Shown: one piece after another, positions 24,937 through 53,849 of the stretch
How positions within the stretch are numbered: position 1 is the stretch's first letter
How the letters are laid out: the number at the start of each line of letters is the position of its first letter
NCBI GenBank assembly: GCA_021432655.1
Contig: MU271489.1
Span: 1-53,849, forward strand
Reading direction: 5' to 3'
DNA length: 53,849 bases
Origin: Atractiella rhizophila
Taxonomy: Eukaryota
Translations under genes and position numbers: made by a program
The notes under the pieces: model-generated
Seen by the model: the letters and a program-made list of their open reading frames with translations, nothing else
The model's database searches: none
Told to the model about the DNA's origin: nothing

Positions 24937-27900
24937 CTAGGTTGGATTGACAATCGCCTCCTCTTCAGCATCGCGGACATTATCGACAAATTCAACAGGC
25001 TCGTCCATGTCAACGGGAGGACCAGAAACGACCTCATATTTGAGTCGACCGTAGCATTCAACGATGACCAACGCTGTCGAAACCGCTATACCGCCCCATT
25101 CAACCTTTGCTCAGTATAAAATATTAAACATACCGGTGTACAGTCCCAGAAAGGAGATGTTTGAGATGTTAAGCAGGGGGAAAAGCGCAAATGCCACCAC
25201 AGTGTACAGTCCCAGAAAGGAGATGTTTGAGATGTTAAGCAGGGGGAAAAGCGCAAATGCCACCACAACTGCCAATCGTATGACAATTCGTACCTCGCGA
25301 GTTAACAAGGACGAGCCTGCGGCATCAAGACTGCGATGCAATGCACCAATGATGGTCATGCCTGCACAACAATCAGCATCTACCGACACAATAATGTATG
25401 AAGCGAACTGAGTAGAGCAACGCTCAGGCTTCCTCCATAATACCTGAAAACCTCATCAGCTTTCAGTTTGAAGGCAGCACAAACACTTGCCATCTCACTC
25501 CTGAGCTGGACTCGCCTTCCACGACCAAGACTTTTAGGCCTGAACTGGCAAGGATCTGGTTTCGATTGAGTCAAATCCAATCTCCGCGATTCGCAAACCC
25601 ACCAATGAGCTAACGAGGGGGAGATGTGCATGTGTGAATGACCATGAGGTGAACCAATGACGTCTGCAACCCTTCTAAATACCAGATGCACCCAAATGTC
25701 AAAGCATTACCTGAAAGCATGCACGAAATTAGCTGAAAATTCCCCTATAAAAATGTCAGGAGAGTTTTGGAATATCCGGTAACTAGCCGACCATCGAAGT
25801 AGCTCCAGTTTAAACTGAACACTGTGATCATAGCCTGAAGGGCAAATCAGTTAGTGTCCTCAAGGCGGTACGGGATAAAGACCAACCAAAGCTGCTCTGC
25901 CGTACGTCGTAGTGAGACCAGGTCCAGATCCAGTTGCCACATAAAGAATGTTGAGAACGCTGTCACCTGTTGTGCTGTTAGAAATTACTCTGGTAGTCCT
26001 GGAGAACAAACCCAAAACGACAATGACAAAGGCGGACAATCTATCGACCGCATGTTCAATGTTGATGGCGATGTGATAGAGCCCGTTCTTCTGAGCCGNN
26101 NNNNNNNNNNNNNNNNNNNNNNNNNNNNNNNNNNNNNNNNNNNNNNNNNNNNNNNNNNNNNNNNNNNNNNNNNNNNNNNNNNNNNNNNNNNNNNNNNNNN
26201 NNNNNNNNNNNNNNNNNNNNNNNNNNNNNCTGTCGACTGCATGTTCAATATTGATGGCGATGTGGTAGAGCCCGTTCTTCTGAGCCGCTTTGAAGCATTC
26301 TTTGATGTTCTCGTTATGTTCCGGAAAATTGGGGTCAAGGGTATCTAGGGCGGTAGTGTCTTGCTTCTCCAAATCCATGTCACCACTGCTCCCCTCTTGA
26401 CATGTCCCTTCCCGGCAGACCTCGAAAGTCTTCTTTTCCGTTGCTGATGAACCAAGTTTCACCTCGTTTCGCCGTAGTCGCATGTCGGCCGCTTTCGAAA
26501 AGGGACAACTTCCTCTTTTTTTATGATCCCTCTCGACTTTCTTGATCTTCTTGTGATGGATCCTGGCGTACAGCATAACCGGGATGAAAAGGAGCAAATC
26601 GCAGAGCTGGCGCAAGCTTCAGTTGAGACTAGCACGCTCGATCAAGCAACCCACAATCGAAGTGATGACCAGTGCGCATTTTTCGAAGTAGGAACCGTCA
26701 TGAAACATTATTGCGAACACAAACATGGTTGTGATGAACGTGAGAGAAATGGAGAAAAAGTAGGACATCCGAAATGCTGGAAGATGGTAAAACTAGGCAC
26801 TCTTTAGCTCACCCAAGTAGTGTCAATATGGTTTCGAACTCACGTAGGCAAGCTGATAAAACATCCTCGAAAATTTTGCCACAACAAAGAAAGCGATGGC
26901 GGCTCTGATGTAAGGGAAGGAGAGCGAGGAGATCAGCTTTGAGTCGCTCGGTTCCTCGGTTGTACTGCTCCCTTCCGCTACAGCAGCATGCGCCACCGAC
27001 TCTGCGAACTCCAGCAGCTCGTGGGGATTGATGATGACAGCAGCGCTGGCAGTGTAGCCAATCAAAAGTAACTTCATTCTTCTGTCAGTCATAGGTTCAA
27101 GTGATTTAGAAGAGCTAACCATGTTCCAGAGGATGAAGCAGCGCTGGACCACGTCGTCGGTACCTGTTCATGGACCTTCAACACTCAATCACTTTTCGTG
27201 AACTGGATAACCTTACCACTTTGATTTGTGAATGTACCTGGTATGGCTTGAGATCAATCGAAAGTAATAAGAGAAGACTTACGCATGTCGCTCCAGATCG
27301 AATACACAGGGTTAAAGACCAAGAAGAAACGAAGTACAGCATTCCCACTGATATTTTCGGCTGCCTTGTCAGCGAGCACATGAACTGCAGCGGTTTTATC
27401 AGGCAAAAGCAAGGTCTGAGAGCGTGGAACTAACCAATAGCGACCTGTGATACCAGTTACTGAAAGTATCTGCTGGAACAGAAGATGTGCATACAATAAG
27501 CAAGTCCCAGAAAAGCTCGAAGCGGCATGGGGTTCTTTGATCAGCTTCTCGATATAGCTTGCCCTATCTTTCAAATTCAGTGCTAGCGCCTCGCACATGA
27601 AGGGATAGATGCACATTATGCAGCCATTGGCGGACAATAAGGGGACGAAAGAGATCCTTCAGGCTGACTAGATGTTCCTCATTGGAATAGGTATCGATAT
27701 GGTGATAATTGAGGAATTCCTGGTCCGTTGTCGTCGCCTTCTTCATATTATCCTCGTAATCGATCTGTTGGCTCCTCCACGTCTTTGTTTGCTTGAGAGC
27801 ATGGACGTTACACTGGCATTTTGGTCGATCTCGACTCAGCAGTTGCGACCAGGACATGGAGGATGAGCAGGTGCATCGTCCAGTATTACTGATCACTGCA

Positions 27901-37375: not shown

Positions 37376-40300
37376 ATGGCGTCCTCGGCATATAATCCTA
37401 CCATGCTTTATGATCCAGGGGACCATCAAACCTCGGCACTCCCCGCCCCTCTCCAAACAAATGTGAATCCACCACAACCCCAGTGGTCGCTTTCCAACAA
37501 TCCAATCTTTGCCCCATACCCAGTTTCTCTTCGGCAGGTTCCAGCAGAAACATCCACTAGCTCTCAAGGCAACACACAGAGGATCTTCGATACTAATATG
37601 CCCGTTATTGGAGGACTCGATATGAACCAAACTGGAAATCAAGGAATGCGGAGGGATATGAAGGAGGATACTCCGCCTGCGAAAAAGAAGACGAGGAACA
37701 GGAAACCGGCTAGTTGTGAGTTTCTTCTTGATCTGGTGTTCAACTGGGAGTTGCATATTGTGAAACCGTTCACTCCTGAGCCTGAGTTGCGCACCACTCG
37801 GAAGCTGTTTCACTCTTCTGCTGCTTGGCATATTAGTAGCAGTTTTCGTTCTTTGATATTACTTTCGGATCCAGCCGCGAGGTGACCAGAGTGCACATCT
37901 CTAAATGGCTGCTGGAATGAGATGAGCAATACGAATCCGAGCTGTGCATGAATGACAAGCAAGGATCTGAATGCGGATATATTAGCAACGACAAAGTTCG
38001 CACCTAAAGGCTGGTGTCGCAATCATCTCAGCGTGCTGGCCCTTAGTGCGCACTTTGACTATTGAAAACGGGCGATTCCTCTGCTGCCGGAGGTATTACC
38101 GGTATCCAAACTCTCATCTGAACAGGCAGCCGAATTCGGATACTCTTACTAATACCTCTGATCGCATGAATACTGACTGACTGGCCTTGGTACAGGTGCC
38201 CCTTGTAGGTAGCTTTCAATGTCATTCTCCTGACTAAATTTTCTTCAGGCAGAAAGAAGAAATTAAGGTGCGATCGATTGGTGCGTCCTTCTGCCTCAGG
38301 GTTCTCCATTGTTGAACGGCGTATTGTGCGATCAGGTTCCTTGTTCGGCGTGTCAACAGCGAGGAGAGGCTCACCTGTGCAGCTGGGAAAATGCCGTGCC
38401 TCTGTGCGTAATCCTCAGCCATCTTCACGTTCTGATGGTTTTTCTAATTCCTTGACCACAGATACCTTGCTAGAGATATGAATGATATGGCCGAGCTACG
38501 CGCCCAAGTAGATCGGCTTCAAGCGCTCGTTGACGTCCTCGCGAACCCAAACAATGGCGGCAACCTCAATTTGCCGGAAGCACAACAACGCGTTCTGGAT
38601 GATAACAGGGCTTTGTCAAACGCATCTCAACAGGAAGAGGTGGATTTGAAAGCGAATGACCTCTGCGAGGCGCTCAGTCACTTGGCCATTTCGCAGATTA
38701 TGCGGATCGATGAGCCGACAGGGGAGAAGTTGAAGGAAACCCAGATCTTCGATGAGGCCAGAACCTTTTGTGCTGCTCTTCCGCAAGCGTATGGACTCTC
38801 GACGACTATACCCAGTTCTGGATCAAACCAACTTGCGCCAGGTGCGGATACAGCGGCCGGCAGTCTGGCAAGATTATCTTACGCTTCGGAGACTGCCACC
38901 GTGAAGGATGCCCTCAAATGCATGCCATTATTGGAGCAGGCCAACAGCGCGCTGAGTTACTATTTTTCTTATGTCGACTGGTTCGTTCATTCTATCTGCA
39001 CGTCTACGAGCTAATTCCACACCAGGTATCTGCATGCATGCCACACTCCCACCTTTCACTTTCAAATGCAACGCCTGAGAGAGACGGCGGAGAAGAACCC
39101 GGACGCAGTGGACCCTTTCTTCCTGGCTGTGTATCTTTCATTGGTGCGTGCCACGTCTATTTCCAAGGACCAGAGGTAATCATGCTATTCTCAGTGTGGT
39201 GTCGGTTTGGCCATGATGCCTTCCTCCCGGGCAAGGCGCGACGGTTTTCCCGTTGATAAGGACAAGCTAGCGAATACGTGGTTGGAAGGCGCGATGATTG
39301 CTCTGACGGCGGGAAAATTTTTGGACACGCCAACGCTCGATGCCATTCGAGCTCTTACCATTATCAATGCTTAGTGAGCCTCCATCTTTGATCAAATAAC
39401 TATCGGCTCATTTGGATACTTACGCAGTTTCGTCTTTATGGCCACTGGAGAATCCGTCAACGGGGGAATTTCCATCCTCACGATGGCCGTCCAACTTGCA
39501 GTCCAGCTTGGCCTCAACCGAGATCCGGATCGCATGGATAAAAAATTCACCTATCTTGAAGCTGAGGATCGTCGACGTATCTTTTGGACACTATTCCATC
39601 TCCTCACCTTAAGCTCCAGGTTAGTAACTTTGTTGCCTTCGTTTAGTCTTGTTGATTCACTTGTTGTAGCTCTCTTGGCAGGACATGGTCAAATTTTGAT
39701 ATGGAAGCCATCGATGTCAGTAAGTTCGCTTTCATTTTCAAAAGTTACAATGTCCAGAGCTCATTGTGACTGTAGAACTCCCCGACGACATGAACGACGA
39801 AGATTTTAGCAAGAAAGAGTTCAAGGATGCGGAGCAGACGGTGAAGAAAACTAGCAAGAAGGAGACCGTCATGACCTCTTTGCTTATTCGCATACGGATA
39901 GCCCAAGTTGCCGTCAAAATAGTACTTCTCTTCTCTATCTCCTAATGAAAACTAACTCAACTCTCAACTCCACAGTCTAAGCGGGCTTTTGGTATCAAAG
40001 GTGTCACGTATAGCGAAATCTTTCAGCTGGATTCCCAAATTCGGGAGGTTCGGCTTCTCCTGCTATCGGGAGGCGAAAAGGCTGATAACATGGACCAGAT
40101 CGAGGACAACCTGCCTCCTTTCTATCTGTTGAAATTCGACAGGGAAGACTACTGGAATATTATTCCACCATCCGATCATGTGACAGCGTCTGAAATGCGA
40201 ACATAGTACGTTTACGTTGTCTTTCCTGAAATTGACAACTGTTTCTGACTGTACTTGCAGCATGATTTGGATTGGTCTTGCTCAAGAATACATTCGAATT

Positions 40301-43296: not shown

Positions 43297-44129
43297 CCTG
43301 CTCCTGCTTGAGCGCTTTGTGCGGTGGCAGACGGAAGTTTAACCGTTTAAAAGCTGGAGGAGGTTGTAGTCAGATCAAGTCAAAGAAGAAGTGAGTTCGG
43401 TCTTTATCACAACTCCTGAGAGCCCCGCAGCGAACAGGTTGGACGCTTATACATGCCCTAAAGCCTCGCTTTTTGAAAGCCCAGCCGATACTAACTAATC
43501 ACGTAATCTAGGTTTCAATGCTGGACAAAGTGCATCTTGGAATTTGATACCAAACATTTCGTTCATCTGCGTTCTTAAGATTAAGATGCCATTGCGCAAC
43601 CATCATCCATGACGCCTACATTATTTAACAAAGCATTCTGTGAAGGTAGAACACGTGCACGCCAGCATCAATGTTGCTGTTCCATGCCCAATTCTCATGT
43701 CCAACCTGGAATTATTAGAACGAGAACCCTGCAGCTAGCAACCAACTGCATTGAACAGCGAATGGCCTGTAATAAGTGTGGTGACTCCTCTCAAGAGTTA
43801 ACATCGCTAACAAGCGTCTGAGCTTGGCCCACCTAGTGAACTTCTAATCAAGTTTCTTTACTGCATACTTCTCTACGACACAACCGTTTCTCGACCTTAC
43901 TTCTCATCATTTCCCAAACATTTGATCAAGTGAGGAAATGAAGCGGAACTGCTCACCGTTTGCAGCTAATTACCTCACCACTGGCTTTAACACTCGTTCT
44001 AGCGGTGTACTGTTACTTCAAATACCCGATTCCCCCAAATCTAACGCCCTTCCACTGTCTTGCGTCTCTGTCGGGTTGATCCCATTCTCCATCCCATTCT
44101 GTTCCAAGCTGTTTGAATGAATAAAGTTG

Positions 44130-45060
44130 TGTTTTTGTGTAGTCATGTTCTGGTGTTCTCCCGCGACAAGACAGAAACACGCTGTAACCGCTGGAACGTT
44201 CTCGGATACGCCAACGCTCAATGCCATCTGAGCACAGATCTGAGCCCTTATCATTATCAATGCTTAGGGAGCTTACATCGTGATCAAATAACTATCAGCT
44301 CATTGGCTCCCTCCATAGTTTCGCCTTTATGGCCACTCAAGAAGCCGTCAATGGGGAAGTTCCATCCTCACGATGGCCGTTGTGTCAGCTCTCTTGGACG
44401 AACGTGGTCGATCTTCGATATGGACGCCACCGATGTCTGTAAGTTCGGGTCCACTACCAGCAAGTCCACGATTCTAAGCTCATTGCGACTACAGAACGGT
44501 CTGACGACATGAATTACGAAGACTTTAGCAAGAAAGAGTTCAAGGATGCTGAGCAGACGGTGAAGAAAACCAGCAAGAGGGAGACGGTTATGACCTCCTT
44601 ATTCGAATACGGATAGAACAAGTCGCGTTCAAAGTAGTGTATGCCTTCTCTATCTCCTAACATAAAGCTGATACACAAGTGCCACAGTCTAAGCGCGCTG
44701 TTGGTATCGAAGGTTTCACCGTACACGGAGGTTTTTCAACTCGATTTGTAGATTCAGGCGGTGCGGCTCCTCTCCTCGTGCTGTCCAATAGGCGAACACT
44801 GAGCAGATTAAAGACCCCTTTCTATCTCCTAAAATTCGAAAAAGAAGATTACTGGAATATTATTCTTCCCATCGGCTCATGTGACAGCGTGTGAAATGCG
44901 AACATAGTGTGCCTGAACAGTCCTTTAAGCACGATTTTGGATCGGTTTCGCTCAAGAATATATTCGAATCCATTGTCCTGACCTTATCCTCGGGTATCAC
45001 AATGTAGAATACGCATATTCAACGTCCCAATGCTTCAAGTACTCGAAGGTTAGTACCGCT
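44130..45060 (+). pseudogene. Decayed duplicate of the middle of the Zn2Cys6 TF gene (about 39190-40390), introns retained
   Basis: Shared blocks such as acgccaacgctc.atgccat, gacgacatgaa..acgaaga.tttagcaagaaagagttcaaggatgc and aagtactcgaaggttagtacc, with deletions and frameshifts. Confidence 0.85.
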
Positions 45061-45240: not shown

Positions 45241-46641
45241 TCATTGCATAGTATCCCACTCTATCTCGACACCGGATCTCCGGCACGCTTCCACAAAAGG
45301 CTGAAGCTGTTCCTTCGAATCCGTCTTAGACCATCGCTCCACAGAAATTCTGATGAACTTGAGGTGCTTAAAGCTACCCTTGCTATCCATTTCGAGACAC
45401 TTCGCAAGCTCGGGCACCATTGCTTGATCCTTATATGGATTGTAACGTTCCCAAATCCTCTCAATCGACGCATCCGCAGGGAAGGCTTTCATTCGGTCAA
45501 ATACGCTACTGCGGTTATAATTATCGACGCTGACAAGTTCCTTCAACTTTGGAGCACGGGAAATGATGGCGCTCGCTTTTGTCGGCATGTCGATGAATGT
45601 TGCGCTCCTGAGGTTGGACGCGAGGGGAGCGTACATATCGTCAGGGAAAAGAGGTTTATCGTCTGCATCACATCCGCGAGCTACGAGGGAGAATGTTCGG
45701 ATCGAATTAGCGCGAAGGGAGGAGTTAAAAATGAATCTATAATCGTCTTCTAATAACACAGGTTGGTAGTGACTTCCAGCGGTCATCCTGAGGGTGTGAA
45801 GTTGGTAGGTAGGTTCTGGAGGATAGCCTCCTTGAGTTTCCCATGAGTCGAAAGTATCGCCAAGAACGAGAATCTTGAGTTGAGGCATCTTTGAGAGGAG
45901 GCAGAAGAGAAGTGGCTTGGGAAAGTTGAACGCATCTTGGCAGGCAAATTCGATCAAAATTGGAAAAGCAAGGGACAGACCCTTTTGAATAGTCGACATT
46001 TCTTGCGGAAGGTAATGATATTTTCCTTCTGGCTTGATGGCCGTTTCGGGATACGGAACAAAGTCATCACGTCCCCAACCTCTCTGGAACCAGGGATAGA
46101 GGAAGGAGAGGAATTGAAGATTCTCGTTGCACGCCGGAAGACGAAGCAGTTCCACGGTATTCTTCCACGTAGGTAGGCCCCACTTCTCTGCTTCTGTTCG
46201 AGTCGCTCCGAAGGTTTGGCGCATGTATGTGTTCTGTCCTCTTGATCCTTTCAAGGAGGCATCGTAATCAAACACGAGTCTTTGAAACTTCCACCCCGGG
46301 ATTTTCTTCTCGCTGTCACTCAAAACTTCAATTAGACCCTCCGCTGCCTTCTTGCTTCTGATCCTCGCGGTCAGGTAGCCAGTCCTCAACACCTCCGAGA
46401 CTGCGATCCTCCAATTGTTTGCCACTTGGGCGAAGCGGAAGAGGTCCCGCTGATATAGTTGATATTCGATATGGTATTTGTAGGGGTATCGTTCCGAGCC
46501 TATGGAATCTGCTGGACGAGGATAATCGTGTGGTCGCTTGGCTGGCGCAGAATTCGGTGGGTTGGAGAAACTGAAAAGGCCAAGAGAAGTAGGACGGGCA
46601 CATTTGAATATTTCTACAAGGGTATCCACTGGGAGCGACAT
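45241..46641 (-). CDS. Intronless F-box-like / RNI-like protein, copy B
   Basis: Colinear, highly similar paralogue of copy A starting at MSLPVDTLVEIFK; flanks are also duplicated. Confidence 0.6.
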   Translation of the reverse strand: MSLPVDTLVEIFKCARPTSLGLFSFSNPPNSAPAKRPHDYPRPADSIGSERYPYKYHIEYQLYQRDLFRFAQVANNWRIAVSEVLRTGYLTARIRSKKAAEGLIEVLSDSEKKIPGWKFQRLVFDYDASLKGSRGQNTYMRQTFGATRTEAEKWGLPTWKNTVELLRLPACNENLQFLSFLYPWFQRGWGRDDFVPYPETAIKPEGKYHYLPQEMSTIQKGLSLAFPILIEFACQDAFNFPKPLLFCLLSKMPQLKILVLGDTFDSWETQGGYPPEPTYQLHTLRMTAGSHYQPVLLEDDYRFIFNSSLRANSIRTFSLVARGCDADDKPLFPDDMYAPLASNLRSATFIDMPTKASAIISRAPKLKELVSVDNYNRSSVFDRMKAFPADASIERIWERYNPYKDQAMVPELAKCLEMDSKGSFKHLKFIRISVERWSKTDSKEQLQPFVEACRRSGVEIEWDTMQ

Positions 46642-47939
46642 CCTGCTTGAGCGCTTTGTGCGGTGAAGATGGAAGTACAACCATTTAAAAGCTGGAGGAG
46701 GTTGCAGTCAGATTAAGTCAAAGAAGTGAGTTCGGTCTTTATAACAACTCATTCCGTGAGACCTCAATGTTTCAGCCCCGCAGCCAACAGGGAGATTGGG
46801 AGATTGGACGCTCATACTTGCCCTAAAGCCTCGCTTTTAGCGGGTCAGCCGATAGAAACTAATCGATATTAACTAATCGATACAAACTAATCGAGTAATC
46901 AAGTAATCTAGCTTTTAGTGCTGTGCCTTGGAATTTGATACCACACATTTCGTTTCATCCGCATTCTTAAGATTAATGCTTGCAGTTTCATGCCCAACCA
47001 TCACCTGTGTCACCGCCTACATTATTTGACAAAGCACCGTGTGCATGTAGAACACGTGCACAATGGCATCACTGTTGCTGTTGCCTCTCATGTCCAACCG
47101 GAATATATTAGGAGGCAACCAACGGCATTGATCAGCGAACGGAGTGTAGTGAGTGCGCTGACTTTCTCTCAAGAGTTAACATGCGCGTCTGCGCTTAGCC
47201 CACCTAGTGACTAATCAAGTTTCTTTACTGCATAATTCGCTATATACAACGGTTTCTCGACCTTACTTCTCATCATGTCCCGAACCCTGGAACGAATGAG
47301 GAAATGGAAATGAAGCGGAACTGCTCACCGTAGGCAACCAATTAGCTCACCACTGGCTTTAAGACTCGTTCTAGCGGTGTACTGTTACTTCAAATACCTG
47401 ATTCCCCCAATCTAACGCCTTTCCACTGTCTTGCATCTCGGTCTGGGTCGGGTTGTTCCCATTCTTCTTGAATGAATAAAGTTGTGTTTTTGTGTAGTCA
47501 CGTTCTAGTGTTCTCCCGCGACAAGAAAGAAACATCCAACAAATCTGTTCTTCAGCTCACTCTAACTACTGAAACGCACATTACTCTTCGGCCAAGTTGG
47601 GTGGAGCGGAGCCGGGCGGTCGGAGGTCGGTAGCACGTGCCTCATACGACGTGAAGAGGCGCACGTAATGCAAGCTAAGCGCTGCAAAGCAAGCACGAAC
47701 CTGCACAAAAACGAGCTCCCAACGCTAAGCTACGCTACCTGAAGGGGGACACAAGGAAAGCAGGCACACCCCACTAAGGGTTCGACGAACCGGCAGCCTG
47801 CTGCTTGTGGCATGCCCCACAACCTGGCGGTAGGAGAAACATTAACATTGATCAGTGTAACATGAAATACCACATTCTAAACGCATTATCACACCTAATC
47901 AGTAGGTACCTCAGACGTGAGTTAAGTGATCCTACATAC

Positions 47940-49175
47940 TCAAATTGCCAACGACTTAGGAATGATGTCCTCATAAGCTCGAATATAAAAGGTGAATGCC
48001 AGTGATTTCCACCTGCCTGCCCATTGTACGGTGAGGGGAGAGATCCCTTGTCCCAGGAAAAAGGAGGCTCCTCCAATTCGAAAGCTGTGGCCTGATACAT
48101 CACGTTCCAAACCTGCGGCTTCCCAAATTTCGTTGACGCGTTTCAAAAAGGCTTGTCTCGTCATTGGCTGCATCTGAAGCGTCTTGCGGTCAATGTATGA
48201 AAACAGAAAATTGTCTGGTTGCAACGGGGTAATCGATCGGTGGTGGGCTAAGGCTTCCACAGGACACAATTTCAGGTCTGCTTGTCGTGGCAGGAAAACA
48301 TTTGGGTTCTCTCCAGGTCGCAAAACACGATTCTTCGTCTTATCGTGCGGAAGGGATAGCTTCAGAAACCCAACCCCTGAATTGTCGGAATTCCAAGTCG
48401 CGTTACGAAGAGGGACGTATTTCTCTGGATATCGCGTATACTCCGGTTTGCTGGGCACGGTAGCTTCTCCCAATCTCATCAAACCAAAAAAGGTAGATGT
48501 GGCAACCGCCCAACAACAGGAGTCGAATGAGTTGCGAAAGTCTAACCCAGTGTGCAAGGCGCGAAGCATGTGTAACGTAACTGGGGGGCGAGGAGCCTTG
48601 AGCTCTTCTCCTCGCAACTTCTTTGCGCCGCGCATAAGGTAATGAAAATAATCCCAATCCTCCTTTGAGGAAAGTGCGAATGGCAGTCCATGATGTGTAT
48701 GCCACGAATGAAGTGCAGTGACATACTTCTGTGCTGTCTGCGGTGTAACCAGCTTCTTAGGCCCTTCCCCTTCCACTCCTCCATCTTCCTTTAAGCACGT
48801 CCATAAACCAAAACCTAAAATCACGCCTTTCGATGCCGGGAAGATTTCGTTTTGAGGCAAATTCATCTTCTCGCAGTATTCTAGGTACTTCGCTAATCCT
48901 GAACCGTATGATTTACGCGTCGATTCGTCCAGGGAAGCTGCAGACGCGAGGGCAACCAGGTTTTGAAGTCGAGGGTGGCTGTAGACCGCTTGGATGTGTT
49001 GCTCCGGTTTCCACTGTAAAATTCTATCTTGCGCTTTGACCTTTGGAAACAAGAGCTGGGGTCATAAGCGAGTAGTCGACGATAAGCCGATTGTTGTGCC
49101 TGTTGGACGAGGTCCTGGTAAGGAGGCATGATGGTGATGGTTCAGGTAACCTCGCTTTCCGATACGTCATCCCAT
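47940..49175 (-). CDS. Tyrosine recombinase of the element (5' part interrupted by TGA codons)
   Basis: STRKSYGSGLAKYLEYC core-binding region; FFGLMRLGE (R), HDKTK (K), GHSFRIGGAS (HxxR), AGRWKSLAFTFYIR (W, Y). Probable ATG at 49175, with TGAs at 49169-49167 and 49064-49062. Confidence 0.92.
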
Positions 49176-49404
49176 CAACTCCTCATCTCAAATGAGCTTC
49201 AGCTCTCCTCCTCCAAACGAGTAGTTTGTATAGAGTAAATCAACATTGATAATTGCGATATTTACGCATCGTCACTAAGTACAAACACCTGCTAATACAC
49301 CTTGCTGATGATGATTTGCTGAAAACCCTTTGCACCCATGCAACAAACCAATGAATGAAGACTGAAAAACCTGGGAAAAACTATTTGATATGAGACACTG
49401 TTGG

Positions 49405-51528
49405 TTACACGAAGTCGAACGAAGCCTCATATGGCTTTGCCCATAAACCCACATATTTCGAAATTTCATGAGGAACCATAATCTCTACTACCCTGCAATG
49501 AGGAAAATCTTGCCGAAAACGCGAAAAAGAACCCCTAGACAAAGCATCGGAGCAGTTAGCCTTACCCGCTAAATGCTGAGAGTGCACTGTCAAACCTCTG
49601 GCGAACTGCAACTGGTACACTCGTTTCAGCGACTCGTTGATCGGAACGTTTTGCGACCTTCCTCGATTGACGGCGCCTACAACTCCCGAATTGTCTGATC
49701 GGACGAGAATTGATCGTTCGTGCAGTCCTAAACGAAGAAAACCCTTCTCCAACATCCAGTCCAATAATCTCAACCCCAATTCCACCGCGAGCATTTCACC
49801 CCAACCAATCCACGTATTTTCCACGGGTCCCCCCTTCCATACCCATAGCGCCGCACAATCGCCAATAATCGCCGCCATCCCGAACGATGTAGACGCGTCT
49901 CCGATCCAAGAGATGTCGACCGGAGCCATGGAAGGGATTAATTGACGAATGGGGGCGTTCATGAGGAAAAAGAGCCAGACTTCCAAATCCGCTTGGACTG
50001 AATTGTTGAGCGAGCGGGACACTGAGGGCTGAAAACCCCATTCCTTCTGAAATGCGATTAAGCTGGCCAAGTACGGTTTGCCTTGAGGGATGATGTACGT
50101 GAGGTGCACCAGTCGCCCATGCATGCGCTCTACGTCCTTGGCCGTGCACACAAACCCGTCCCCCAACCATTCTCACACCATTCCTAAGATTTTGTCATAC
50201 TTCTCCCGCTTCAACTCTACCGTCTTCAACGAAAGATCCCATTCGAACCCGACGTACGGGCAGCGAAAAGCGAAGTCCTTGCATTTCGCCTCGTTCCACG
50301 CCACGCCATAAGAAACCATGCCGTTGAAGAAACCCGCTAGGTCGTATTTGTAAGGCGGGGATCGAAAGATCGCCTTGTCGTCCACCCACTTCTTGATGGG
50401 ACCGTAGCCGTGGGACTCTGTGAGCGCCACCAACGCATCTCCTACTCGGCCGTAGATCATTGGCATTGGCGCCAGTCCGAAGCAACCGCACTTGTCGATG
50501 TAGAAATGCCCCGGTCGGATCTGAACAACAAGCCAACATCGAACCGAGGGATGCGAGGGGATGAGGCGAAAAGCTGACTTGACATCCACAACCGCCGCCT
50601 GTGCGCCAGGGGGAGCCTCCAAGACCGCTGCCGCCATGTCCTTGAAGGAATCCCATCCACACTCGTACTTCTCTGTTTCCGCCCTTGTATTCACCGATAG
50701 AAGGCCCCCATCTTGTCCTGCCCCTATCGCTCGCTCCTCTCCCTCATCCAACTGTTCTTTATCCACCAACTCCGCCCAATCTACTACTTTCCCAAACAGC
50801 CTCCCTTCCTTCTTCAACACCGTTTTCTTTCTCGCATAGTAATCCCTTCTATCTTTCTTCCACCTCTTCCACAACCACCAAGGGACTTTCCTGTCCTTAG
50901 GGAAAGATAAGTCTTGTATCAAGCGATATTCTCCTGGCTCCGACTTGGGAACGACTGCCAAGGGCGATGACTGAAAAGGGGAACCCAGCAGTTCCTCAAC
51001 CTGCTCCTTCGTAAACGGACCTGCATACCGTTCTAAACGCACCTCCTCCGCTGCGTACTCGTCTAAGAATGATTGGTATTGTGCAGCTGAGGGGTGGTTG
51101 TCGGGAGTGAAGGTGAAGGAAGGGGGGGAGTTGAGTCCGTCCACTTTGAAACCGTGAGCCAGAGTAGAAACCACATCCTGGAACTGATCCAGGAGTCCTG
51201 AAACCGTTAAACCATTGATCCACACCGGCGTATTAAGAGGCGTCACCAATTCCTTCGCACGCGCAAAGTCTTCGCTCGAGAGCGTCGACGGCGGCGAAGG
51301 AAGAATCCGTTCAGGACGAAGAGGATGTGGCGCTGCCGCGCCTAGTTTCGACGGATGGGCATTGCCGGGCTGAATGAGCTTCTCCACAGATGGTGCATGA
51401 ATGGTTGTACTTGCAGTTTGTGTTGAAGTTGCAATGGTTGATGTTGAACTGAGAACATGCGACGCGTCCTTGGGGGTCGAGGAGGGCCGAAAGAGGGAGG
51501 GACTGCTTCTTGATGGGCTTTCCCGCAA
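49405..51528 (-). CDS. Pol (reverse transcriptase plus RNase H) of the element, with one in-frame TGA
   Basis: FQSSPLAVVPK, YRLIQDLSFP, VVDVKSAFRLIP, FGLAPMP, KKWVDD, YVGFEWD; RNaseH IGDASTSFG, WGEMLAVELG, VRSDNSGV, ANCSDALSRG. The two listed ORFs share a frame across TGA 50175-50173. Confidence 0.92.
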
Positions 51529-53375
51529 CTGTGGTTGACTCCTTGCATCACTGCCCTATTCTTGAGCTCAGCCACATAACTGCTGCACACTACAATCGAC
51601 CTACATGTCCTACTACCGCAGACCGCTTTATCCTTTCCACACTGGATGCAACAGCTAAAGGCAACGCTACCCGCTGCCGATTGGCGTCTCTCGTAGGGAG
51701 ACGTGGAGCCGCTCCAAAAGGGCTGGCCGTTTCTCTGAGAGGGTGCGCGATTCGAGGGTGAAGGAAAAGGTGTCGCGGTTGGTCTTGAGACAATCGAATG
51801 CAGCGATTCTCGTACCACCGACTGATACAGCGACTCGAACACAGCCGAGTTGCTGATATCGGGCCACGCTCTCGATCCGTTCCCCAGATCCTTGCCTGAA
51901 ACTGCGTGTTGATTCCTGTGGCGAATATCTGCATCGCGGATGACCGGCCAGTTCTCTGCCGATCCTCTCCCCTCGCCGTAGTAGATACCCTCCACCAAAT
52001 CAATGTATCTTTCCCAACACGCCGCCGCTCCTTCGTGCTTGTCCTCTGCCTCTCGAAAAATTCTCAACAGGACCTTCGCCGCCCCGTACCATTCATCGAA
52101 GGAGAGCAGCTTGTCCTTCCCTTTGAAGTTCTTCAGGATATGTTCCACCGAGTTGGTGGCGTAAACTGTGGTGCCGAGGTTGAGATCGATTGCGACTTTG
52201 TCTGACATGTTGGGGGTACGCGTTTTGTTGAATCCGGGCGAATAGGCGGCCATTTCGAGGAACGCGTGCGGATTCTTCTTCGCATGTTCATACAACTTGA
52301 CATGCAGCCACTGTTTCACCGCACATTTCATCAGCTCCATTCTCAATCACAATCCCCTGTGAAACACAGCACACCATGACAGTCTACAACACAACTGTAT
52401 TAACACAAGAAACTGGGACATAATGCAGTCTCCCAACACAATCCCGCTACCTGTAACGCAACGCAGGCAGCTGTCAACACGGCTCTATTAACCTGCTAAC
52501 CGGTAACGCAACGCATGGCGGCTGCCAACACAGCTGCACTAACTGGCTAACCAGTAACGCAAAGAATGCAGTTGTCAACACAACTGCGCGAGAAAAGCTG
52601 GCCAACCAGTACTGCAACGCAATGCAGCAACGCAATGCAGAGACCGCTGCAAGAACTGGCTAACCAGTGACGCGACGCTTTACAACTGCCTACACAGTTG
52701 TATACTTCTTAACTGAGCCAAATGCTCTAACGCAAAACGCAACGCAGGCTGACAGAACAGCTTCTGCAGCCCGGCTAACCAGTACTGCACGCGCAACGCC
52801 AGCTAACTGGCGGACGCCCAAAACTCCAAGCATCATTGTCCCGACAACAAACGAAACACTCACTGGAGGACACACGCCTGAAACTCTTGCTGTCCCATCT
52901 ATCACAGACATTCCTCCCTCCTTTTCTTTCTCCTTCGTAACTGAGCTGGTGAGATTTTGGACAAGATTGCCGATAGAATCGAGGAACTTGGTGATGGCTA
53001 CCTGCGATGCCGATTCTGAAGTATTCACCCAGCCCGACGCGTTCAGGATGCCTTGAAGTCGCCCTTCCTTAGCCAGGCGTTGTAGGGAGTCGAAGAAAAC
53101 TCGATCCGACGCGTTTTCCGCATTTCCTGCTCCTGATTCCACGCCACCGGGTCCGGACGCGTGCGAACCCGATACAACACCACCCTCCGTTGCCTGGCTT
53201 CCTATCCCTTCTCTTCCTTCTCCTTCTCTCAGACCACTTGCCAATCCTCTCTCCCCCCAATTGTTTCCCAAAGCGCCAGACATGCCTCCTGCAAACAAGT
53301 TCTCCAGAGACTCAGAGGACGTCATTCCACCTTGCCCTCCACTCCCGCCATCGTTTCCTGCCATATCGGCCATTA
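51311..53375 (-). CDS. Gag-like ORF1 of the element, apparently spliced, ending in CCCH and CCHC zinc fingers
   Basis: ORFs 52690-53451 and 51342-52346 join through a phase-0 intron (52863-52311). A 49-nt intron (51604-51556) shifts into a frame encoding CSQFNINHCNFNTNCKYNHSCTICGEAHSARQC, which stops at 51311. Start is approximate (MADMAG). Confidence 0.65.
52380..52815. repeat. Degenerate tandem repeat array (about 50-60 bp units) inside the element
   Basis: Recurring aactggctaaccagt(a)acgcaacgca and cagctgtcaacac-like motifs. Confidence 0.75.
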
Positions 53376-53606
53376 TCTTGAACTGAGTGAATCTAGAGAA
53401 GGAGAGCTGTTGGGAGGTGCCGAATGAAGTTTTTGCGCTTTTAGGACGCATGAAAACTCACTTGAGTGAGCTGATCTGCTGAGAGGGAATGGCGAAGTGG
53501 TTGTGAAAACAAGCAATGACCTCACTTAGCATTCTACAATTTGTTAGAAGGGCGGAAAAGATCTTTCGCTCATGACTCACTTCAGTCTTTTCTGCCACAA
53601 GAAACA

Positions 53607-53849
53607 CGCTCTAACCGGGGGAACGCTGCCAACGCTCAATGCCATCCGAGACCTTATCATTTCAATGCTTAGTGAGCGCTAGTGAGCTTTCATCGTGATC
53701 AAATAACTATCAGCTCATTTCGCTTCCGACACAGTTTTGCCTTTGTCCCACTCGAGAAGCCGTCAGCGGGGAAGTTCCATCCTCACGATGGCCGATGTTG
53801 CAGCTCTCTTGGACGAGCGTGGTCGGACTTCGACGAGGATGCCGTCGAT
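53607..53849 (+). pseudogene. Third decayed copy of the TF fragment, continuing the interrupted duplication unit
   Basis: Matches 44180-44435 (gccaacgctcaatgccatc, catcgtgatcaaataactatcagctcatt, ggggaagttccatcctcacgatggccg). Confidence 0.85.

Follow-up and report, generated by a model that had tools for sequence, protein, structure and literature searches.

A tyrosine-recombinase retrotransposon of Atractiella rhizophila, probably of the Ngaro type, with spliceosomal introns in gag

Reverse transcription of mature messenger RNA (mRNA) erases introns, and a retrotransposon with interrupted genes poses the question of how the interruptions can persist. Such an element is found on contig MU271489.1 of Atractiella rhizophila (assembly GCA_021432655.1), of which positions 1 to 53,849 of the forward strand, 53,849 nucleotides (nt) in all, were analysed and are called the window. 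It occupies positions 47535-53606 on the minus strand (~6.07 kb) and consists of a leader, the gag gene in three exons, a pol gene for reverse transcriptase (RT) and RNase H, a tyrosine recombinase (YR) gene and a 3' region. A preliminary description made from the sequence alone had delimited this tyrosine-recombinase retrotransposon and supposed that it carries multiple spliceosomal introns, two in gag and three in the leader.

The explanation which accounts best for the observations, and which taken as a whole we consider probable, is that the element represents one slightly decayed copy of a basidiomycete Ngaro-type tyrosine-recombinase retrotransposon, that the gag-intron arrangement is old, maintained and common to a clade of basidiomycete-type Ngaro elements rather than a product of decay, and that spliced mRNA serves for Gag and Gag-Pol synthesis while unspliced RNA is the template for reverse transcription.

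Splice joints and the reading frame of gag

Three sequencing runs contain the element, X1 and X2, which derive from one sample and are recorded as 'DNA?', and X3, the kind of which is unrecorded. All were used as Logan contigs, in which unspliced RNA, transcript ends and strand are invisible, aligned to 47300-53849 at 90% likeness. Four joints occur in X3 only and all four have GT..AG borders, namely 52310/52864, 51554/51604 and 47876/47940 in the element and, in the flank, 53681/53735 on the opposite strand. The joints that X1, X2 and X3 have in common are DNA copy variants and not introns (48494/48860; 50752/50854, replaced by 21 nt; inversions at 50618).

The first of these joints removes intron 1 (52311-52863, minus strand), 553 nt in phase 0 with the pattern GTGAGT...CTGAT...CAG, the A of CTGAT being situated 20 nt before the terminal CAG. 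An X3 contig connects 52864 to 52310 exactly (depth 144, with 78 nt on the shorter side). Over the interval 52337-52774 X3 has zero depth, whereas X1 (958-1308) and X2 (530-547) cover the same interval without the X3 joints and show the introns at exon-level depth. The gene models P0001 and P0003, which represent other copies, join CPP to WLHVKLY at the very same junction. Gene model P0002, 86% identical over the matched 55% of the query, reads into the intron-1 sequence, which means that a more diverged copy still has intron 1.

Intron 2 (51556-51604, minus strand) is a 49-nt GTAGGT...TAG segment in phase 1 inside the degenerate first zinc knuckle, with a branch-like site that reads CTGAG and not CTRAY. 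The X3 joint at 51554/51604 (cut +1; CT..AC on the plus strand) has a depth of 67 with 220 nt on the shorter side; X3 shows no depth at 51581, and no X1 or X2 contig skips the segment. Intron 3 (47877-47939, minus strand), which the preliminary description had missed, comprises 63 nt of the form GTATGT...CTGAT(22 nt)...TAG directly after the YR stop codon, and its X3-only joint 47876/47940 has a depth of 7.1 with 28 nt on the shorter side. GT..AG borders, absence from the RNA-like X3 contigs and presence in DNA thus coincide in all three segments, and introns 1 and 2 are spliceosomal introns, which the RNA-like contigs have lost and the DNA retains. Both gag segments of the preliminary description are thereby cut out exactly in transcript-like data, as it had proposed to verify.

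The reading of X3 as RNA-derived follows from its uneven depth together with the GT..AG joints that X1 and X2 do not have. Besides the gap in intron 1, X3 depth amounts to 116-517 over the bins of gag exons 1 and 2 (51680-52336, 52775-53431), 52-168 over 49271-51679, which includes intron 2, the end of gag and pol, and 1.5-22 over YR and the 3' part, whereas the DNA runs are more even (X1 297-2362, X2 258-1721, ~4- to 8-fold between bins). As the library type is unrecorded, we infer from depth and joints that X3 represents RNA.

The three leader introns of the preliminary description found no support. The 5' leader (53374-53606, minus strand) shows no splice joint in any run, a weak negative as contigs with very short exons may escape alignment, and the supposed intron units are three copies of the motif AAGTGAG at 53581, 53526 and 53462. 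X3 depth is 38.9 in bin 53432-53650 versus 516.7 in the next bin. The shorter motif AGTGAG occurs five times in 6.5 kb, at these three leader positions, at the intron-1 donor (52864) and at the 3' end (47561).

Removal of the introns has a defined consequence for the product. Gag exon 1 (52864-53373) starts with the ATG at 53373-53371, comprises 170 codons and matches the N-terminus of P0001, exon 2 (51605-52310) is 98% identical to P0001, and exon 3 (51311-51555) encodes the CCCH and CCHC fingers and ends with the TGA at 51313-51311, all on the minus strand. Unspliced RNA runs into a stop after 227 codons inside intron 1; removal of intron 1 alone gives a 492-amino acid (aa) product without fingers, as P0001 predicts; and removal of introns 1 and 2 shifts gag into the finger frame, as had been described for intron 2, and yields a Gag of 486 codons with the CCCH and CCHC fingers at its end (zf-CCCH Pfam match, E=6.6e-4). 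Only three NCBI gene models match the gag part, at 98% identity over 96% of the query, 86% over 55% and 84% over 17%; all are from A. rhizophila, whose gene models are the closest proteins with a name.

The copy in the window is mildly decayed, with three defects, and the introns are not part of this decay. The junction of intron 2 is followed by W-Q-TGA, a premature stop at 51550-51548 that reads TGG in all X1 and X2 depth (T>C at 51548), X3 having the letter of the window. At 50173-50175 (minus strand) a second in-frame TGA divides the RT part from the RNase H part, at a point where the relatives have an open frame. Near 49057 one base is missing, which puts the ATG of the YR gene out of the YR frame; an extra G behind 49057 is found in 589.6 of 713.6 of X1 depth and in all X2 and X3 depth. 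The refuting case named in the preliminary description, decay recognizable from intact copies with a continuous gag frame, does not apply, the DNA runs retaining the introns at full depth and the diverged P0002 reading into intron 1.

An intron in gag among relatives of the element

A scan of metagenome contigs with the RT alignment recovered 80 loci (308 confirmed stretches) with the architecture fingers-RT-RNase H-YR, of which 29 include the relevant part of gag. In 17 of these 29 loci a GT(G/A)AG(T/C)...YAG intron of 108-786 nt is fully mapped at the same residue and in phase 1. Both intron ends were located by spliced-alignment search in nine (L018, L029, L030, L033, L035, L039, L040, L041, L051); in the other eight (L019, L020, L025, L037, L054, L056, L058, L062) the end of exon 1, which is conserved, is followed by GT(G/A)AGT, and a YAG stands 2 bases before the likewise conserved motif (I/V)P(P/K)(K/R)(V/I)(D/E)xAF. 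One further locus has the donor, with an acceptor recognized by eye only (L031), and two include the acceptor side only (L044, L048). Gag is uninterrupted in two members of the intron clade (L032, L055) and open across the position in seven loci of another clade (L001-L004, L016, L028, L042).

A quick tree of RT-RNase H with 41 rows unites all 15 rows that have the intron, together with both intron-less forms, in one group (SH-aLRT, the Shimodaira-Hasegawa-like approximate likelihood ratio test, 99). The window element is placed on a long branch between the intron group and the open-gag group in this midpoint-rooted tree. In a MAFFT alignment of the spliced Gags, intron 1 of the window is four columns (3 residues) away from the position common to the relatives, and an ungapped scan likewise gives -3 as the best shift, with all scores negative. 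Intron 2 of the window is located in the first zinc knuckle, where the relatives have no intron.

The intron-less L032 shares 99.7% identity with L033 over the 907 nt that follow and is without exactly the 233-nt intron. L032 and L055 could each be an assembled transcript or else a DNA copy that originated from spliced RNA. L032, for the rest 98-99.7% identical to L033, also lacks precisely a 71-nt GTTCGT...CAG piece (L033 1517-1587; L032 2706/2707), which encodes conserved pol residues (YFANHKS...) and could be an alternative or regulatory splice that disables pol. In these relatives, the N-terminal piece of pol and the RT core are in different frames, or have a stop between them (L055). Gaps of 187-292 nt in the RT alignment of nine relatives (L045, L049, L067, L072, L073, L075, L076, L078, L079) were considered as introns and rejected in seven of the nine, which have one open frame encoding a conserved insertion; L045 and L072 change frame at the gap.

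Several further features of the relatives were observed. In the intron clade (L041 1442-4678, L018 1493-4660, L051 1810-5043, L039, L029, L035, L055, L032) a second frame is open over the whole ~1.5-kb open reading frame (ORF) of RT and RNase H, with 0 stops (1 in L039) versus 19-29 in the third frame, and it continues into the YR ORF, so that ORFs of up to 1079 aa result; this frame may represent an overprinted ORF of great length, or else extend YR at its N-terminus. No such overlapping frame is open in L001, L011 and the window element (13-23 stops). In L055 (4416 nt), L019, L032 and L068 the contig reads from the YR gene to gag, L055 being a circular permutation from YR residue 286 round to 284, which fits assembly through terminal repeats, tandem copies or circles. 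In the clade without gag intron, tandem repeats of ~75 nt (L011 3145-3537) and 57 nt (L001 654-805) are situated directly upstream of the gag ORF, the same relative place as the repeat-bearing intron of the window.

This intron of the window harbours a tandem array at 52446-52746 (minus strand) of 5-6 units of 50-67 nt with small hairpins (ACTGG-ttag-CCAGT). Hairpins with a stem of at least 4 and a TTAG loop number three in the array and one elsewhere in the whole window on both strands, and the fold z-score of the array is only -2.1. The long introns of several relatives have arrays of their own. GAGC-gatag-GCTC occurs four times in L029, L025 has seven hairpins in which stems built on GGAC/GTCC enclose a loop of 4 nt (such as GGGAC-agta-GTCCC), and further arrays are of other types. 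Four introns totalling 1122 nt contain 10 instances of a [GT]A[ATG]AG-loop motif, defined after it had been seen, compared with 0 in the 21,718 nt outside. That hairpins characterize these introns in general was rejected, the excess in 17 introns being only 1.5-fold (13.1 versus 8.5 per kb) and the four short introns having none. One may hypothesize that the arrays act in cis, for example by marking the unspliced RNA.

Pol, the termini and the route of transposition

The frames on the minus strand are arranged in the order gag (open pieces 53457-52690, 52346-51342 and 51547-51311), RT (51555-50173), RNase H (50172-49405) and YR (49061-47940), so that all four constituents of a tyrosine-recombinase retroelement are found. 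The RT part of pol (50176-51555) is open from 51555 and conserved from ~51246, with 2524 relatives at E<=1e-3 in the full HMMER scan, the named ones being 'polyprotein' or hypothetical proteins of Ceratobasidium, Rhizoctonia and Tricholomella. The pol protein of the window itself has no Pfam match. Aligned with its relatives, however, the window RT displays the D...FG...WVDD pattern, and an RT profile of 14 relatives, of which four match RVT_1, matches Ty3 RT structures (E=1e-3). The RNase H part (49405-50172, minus strand) matches the RNase H regions of 60 of the 80 relatives in tblastn and aligns to P0004.

A Lys/Arg/Trp-rich insertion of ~63 aa between RT motifs (RT aa 223-285, 50670-50900) is absent from all relatives, and every HMMER match listed is broken into 2-3 stretches, mostly on either side of it. 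Other copies have 50753-50853 replaced by 21 nt, in DNA as in X3. As a candidate additional intron the insertion was rejected, as an X3 contig passes through it and the DNA of other copies varies there too.

The YR gene (47940-49129, minus strand) begins with the ATG at 49129-49127, which in the window is in another frame than the YR ORF. Its product matches Phage_integrase with E=7.5e-6 and 26.3 bits, just under the Pfam cut-off of 27.1, and candidate catalytic residues R...H-x-x-R...Y were picked out of the translation by eye (LMRLGE, HSFRIGG, FYIRAY).

No ATG precedes the RT core of pol, the frame of which is +1 to the finger frame of gag. At the end of gag, TCC TGA (51311-51316, minus strand) is a candidate +1 frameshift site from which the pol frame would be entered. 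The gag stop is TGA in 12 of 13 relatives examined as well as in the window, and reading from the second base of this TGA gives D or E, followed in the relatives within ~5 residues by the conserved start of pol, ...V(T)TP(L/F)...; VTPL of the window is found ~22 residues further on. To judge from the frames, a +1 shift at the gag UGA (TCC TGA A) would thus produce Gag-Pol, at a site which resembles the antizyme shift site, and if this is right both gag introns must go for Gag-Pol. A -1 shift was rejected, the sole slippery heptamer GGGAAAG (51524) giving the wrong frame.

The ends of the element are defined by comparison with an empty-site analogue. The flanks align to a single uninterrupted paralogue at 43934-44434 (plus strand), itself part of another repeat, the left flank up to 47534 and the right flank from 53600. 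In contigs of other copies in the DNA runs the agreement with the window stops at 47535 on one side and at 53603 or 53606 on the other, from which it follows that the ends are family-wide and that the right-hand AGAAACA is, wholly or in part, element sequence; the span of the preliminary description fits both lines of evidence. The 7-base pair (bp) sequence AGAAACA is situated on the target side at 47528-47534, again at 53600-53606 and once in the empty paralogue (44173-44179), and is either a target duplication or a recombination core common to element and target. Other copies have 4-7 of its bases in common at the 53600 side in the DNA-run contigs, and one other copy has a left flank without the core at its end. 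The family is present in multiple copies (three gag gene models on three contigs; 200, 101 and 47 contigs aligned from X1, X2 and X3), and with an empty paralogous site and the flanks of other copies diverging at the same ends, the element is mobile.

Neither terminal direct nor inverted repeats were recovered by a repeat search of the window element, with 0 inverted repeat pairs. With respect to split direct repeats, the first 300-500 nt have no direct repeat of at least 12 nt and no 8-mer in common with the last 450-650 nt, nor is there one inside the 3' end; the best local matches between the element ends are 9-14 nt and the best inverted match is 14 nt. The same method finds textbook Ngaro split direct repeats in L041, L064 and L020 and none in L025, L048, L070 and L045. 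The leader at 53474-53464 is complementary to the 3' end at 47562-47552 over 11 nt (~0.03 expected by chance for that comparison).

The 3' terminal region (47535-47876, minus strand) lacks split direct repeats and has ~1.5-2x the DNA depth of the interior, as have both termini (47519-47956, 53432-53650) in X1 and X2. In one X3 contig, unrelated sequence surrounds an embedded piece of 144 nt (47556-47699). The raised terminal depth and the embedded piece suggest truncated or non-autonomous derivatives.

No further copies of the element were found inside the window; the flanking repeat alone recurs, at 43934-44434 and 39329-39489. The element has inserted within this other repeat (53600-53849, 47306-47534, 43934-44434, 39329-39489), which occurs two more times in the window and is expressed in X3 with a 53-nt GT..AG intron of its own on the plus strand (53682-53734). 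An open frame of 488 aa without Pfam match adjoins the element (45241-46707, minus strand), and an assembly gap of 131 N is found at 26099-26229.

An intron kept in gag across a diverged clade implies that the element must pick an unspliced RNA as template and at the same time depend on spliced RNA for its proteins. In the scheme we favour, removal of introns 1 and 2 would build a Gag with CCCH and CCHC fingers, and Pol would be made as a Gag-Pol fusion by the +1 shift at the gag UGA. The unspliced RNA, which codes for neither Gag nor Gag-Pol, would be reverse transcribed, whereby the introns survive; the proteins would act on it in trans, and YR would insert the complementary DNA (cDNA) at a site with the common 7-bp core.

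Several observations speak against this scheme. The RNA nature of X3, its kind being recorded as '?', is deduced, and no unspliced transcript was detected, X3 depth being 0 in intron 1. Homology of intron 1 with the intron of the relatives may be questioned in view of a distance of 3 residues, phase 0 versus phase 1 and low gag similarity, the intron-less L032 and L055 may be transcript assemblies and not DNA copies, and the +1 frameshift is derived from the frames. As the window family has neither split direct nor inverted terminal repeats, the usual Ngaro route to full-length cDNA is not evident. Among the best-supported 40 of 263 differences between copies, which were the ones classified, 30 are coding and 17 of these 30 synonymous, with 7 of 9 in YR and 5 of 10 in pol; this excess indicates some constraint on coding, weakest where the RNA route needs it most, and for RT the pol sample is weak evidence of constraint.

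A bolder version of the favoured scheme is tentative, and we would rather doubt than endorse it. It holds that the gag intron is obligatory across the clade and predates its divergence, that splicing sets the messenger for Gag and Gag-Pol apart from a non-coding genomic RNA, that the lineage-specific hairpin arrays of the long introns mark this RNA for packaging or reverse transcription, and that the window family has lost its split repeats and uses a Crypton-like 7-bp core, as a possible intermediate between YR retrotransposons and DNA transposons.

The most durable rival, which we nevertheless consider unlikely, is Crypton-like movement at the DNA level, in which YR mobilizes the element as DNA, by excision or copying, and inserts it anew at a short shared core, the introns are never exposed to loss, and gag and RT are relics or serve another step. 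The absent split direct and inverted terminal repeats, AGAAACA at both ends and once in the empty paralogue with 4-7 of its bases on one side in other copies, and the clearest synonymous excess in YR are in its favour, and Crypton termini are described as likewise lacking terminal inverted repeats (TIRs) and long direct repeats and as having direct repeats of 4 or 6 bp (Kojima and Jurka, 2011; PMC3212892). Against it stand the gag, RT and RNase H frames, nearly intact across ~98%-alike copies, the RT motifs conserved with the 2524 relatives, the copy whose left flank lacks the terminal core, and the exact intron-less relatives, which are expected if RNA is sometimes the source. Moreover, L041 and L020, relatives with textbook Ngaro split direct repeats, have their gag intron within ~3 residues of that of the window, so that movement as DNA is unnecessary for intron retention.

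It is very improbable that X3 was sequenced from DNA of a different strain or species with processed copies, in which case its joints would be no evidence of splicing here. The kind '?' and an organism code that differs from X1 and X2 would allow it, yet depth from 0 to 517 over 6.5 kb is at odds with the ~4- to 8-fold variation of the DNA runs, four of four X3-only joints are canonical GT..AG including the one on the opposite strand of the flank (53681-53735), at 51548 X3 agrees with the window and not with the majority of the DNA, and exact GT..AG deletions would still imply earlier splicing. Decay indels in a dead element with a chance resemblance to GT..AG, for which the real defects of the copy (TGA 51550-51548, TGA 50175-50173 and the deletion near 49057) could be cited, can be dismissed in view of the exact GT..AG cuts of both segments in X3 contigs, the use of the intron-1 junction by gene models of two other copies and the positionally conserved intron in 17 fully mapped relatives.

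Comparison with known systems

What appears to be new is a group of probably Ngaro-type elements with a maintained and obligatory gag intron, a feature wider than the preliminary description had supposed. The choice between genomic RNA and mRNA becomes directly testable in a simple fungal system, including how the proteins find an RNA that does not encode them. The finding is also relevant to how YR retrotransposons and Cryptons are related, a question in which introns have been taken as a sign of DNA transposition, and transposon annotation based on ORFs would score such intron-bearing elements as broken.

The element resembles Ngaro in the order of gag, RT-RNase H and YR on one strand, and its RT relatives L041, L064 and L020 have the split direct repeats A1...B1-A2-B2. 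It differs from Ngaro in that the window family lacks these repeats and has two introns in gag and one after YR. No methyltransferase was found by Pfam match in the pol and YR ORFs, to which the search was confined; the ~275-nt gap between RNase H and YR (stop 49407-49405 to 49129) contains just two short open frames, of 52 and 69 aa. The host group is rich in Ngaro according to the main text of a Pucciniomycotina and Agaricomycotina survey, in which most elements are incomplete and the terms 'intron' and 'splic' are absent (Muszewska et al., 2013; PMC3783388).

More generally, literature searches and passages of PMC3783388, PMC13465315, PMC3212892, PMC7192593, PMC8547959, PMC5718144, PMC6431247, PMC5890265, PMC12477816, PMC8226300 and PMC3411680 yielded no instance of a spliceosomal intron described for an element of the Ngaro, DIRS or PAT groups; an earlier mention is possible, the founding Ngaro paper and a 2015 review being outside this set. 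Cryptons, DNA transposons of fungi and animals with YR as their only enzyme, have neither TIRs nor long direct repeats, and their termini have direct repeats of 4 or 6 bp (Kojima and Jurka, 2011; PMC3212892). Like them, the element is free of TIRs and long terminal repeats (LTRs), has a short direct repeat at either end and contains spliceosomal introns in its coding region. In contrast, Cryptons lack gag, RT and RNase H, all of which the element possesses, and the RT of the element falls among those of Ngaro-like elements.

DIRS1-like and PAT-like elements are likewise YR retroelements with RT-RNase H, in which overlapping reading frames are usual; the window element differs by the absence of inverted terminal repeats, of an internal complementary region and of a methyltransferase match. 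Some Penelope-like elements are retroelements that keep spliceosomal introns through retrotransposition. Penelope-like elements belong, however, to a different RT clade, possess a GIY-YIG endonuclease in place of YR and are not known to have a zinc-finger gag, and among the window ORFs searched there is no Pfam match to GIY-YIG, a dedicated Penelope test not having been made.

In retroviruses and some LTR retrotransposons, such as Ogre with its intron and copia with its gag RNA, unspliced RNA is the genome and spliced RNA a messenger, and the labour is divided between spliced and unspliced transcripts as it would be here. There, the unspliced RNA encodes Gag, whereas in the element of A. rhizophila it is gag itself that is interrupted.

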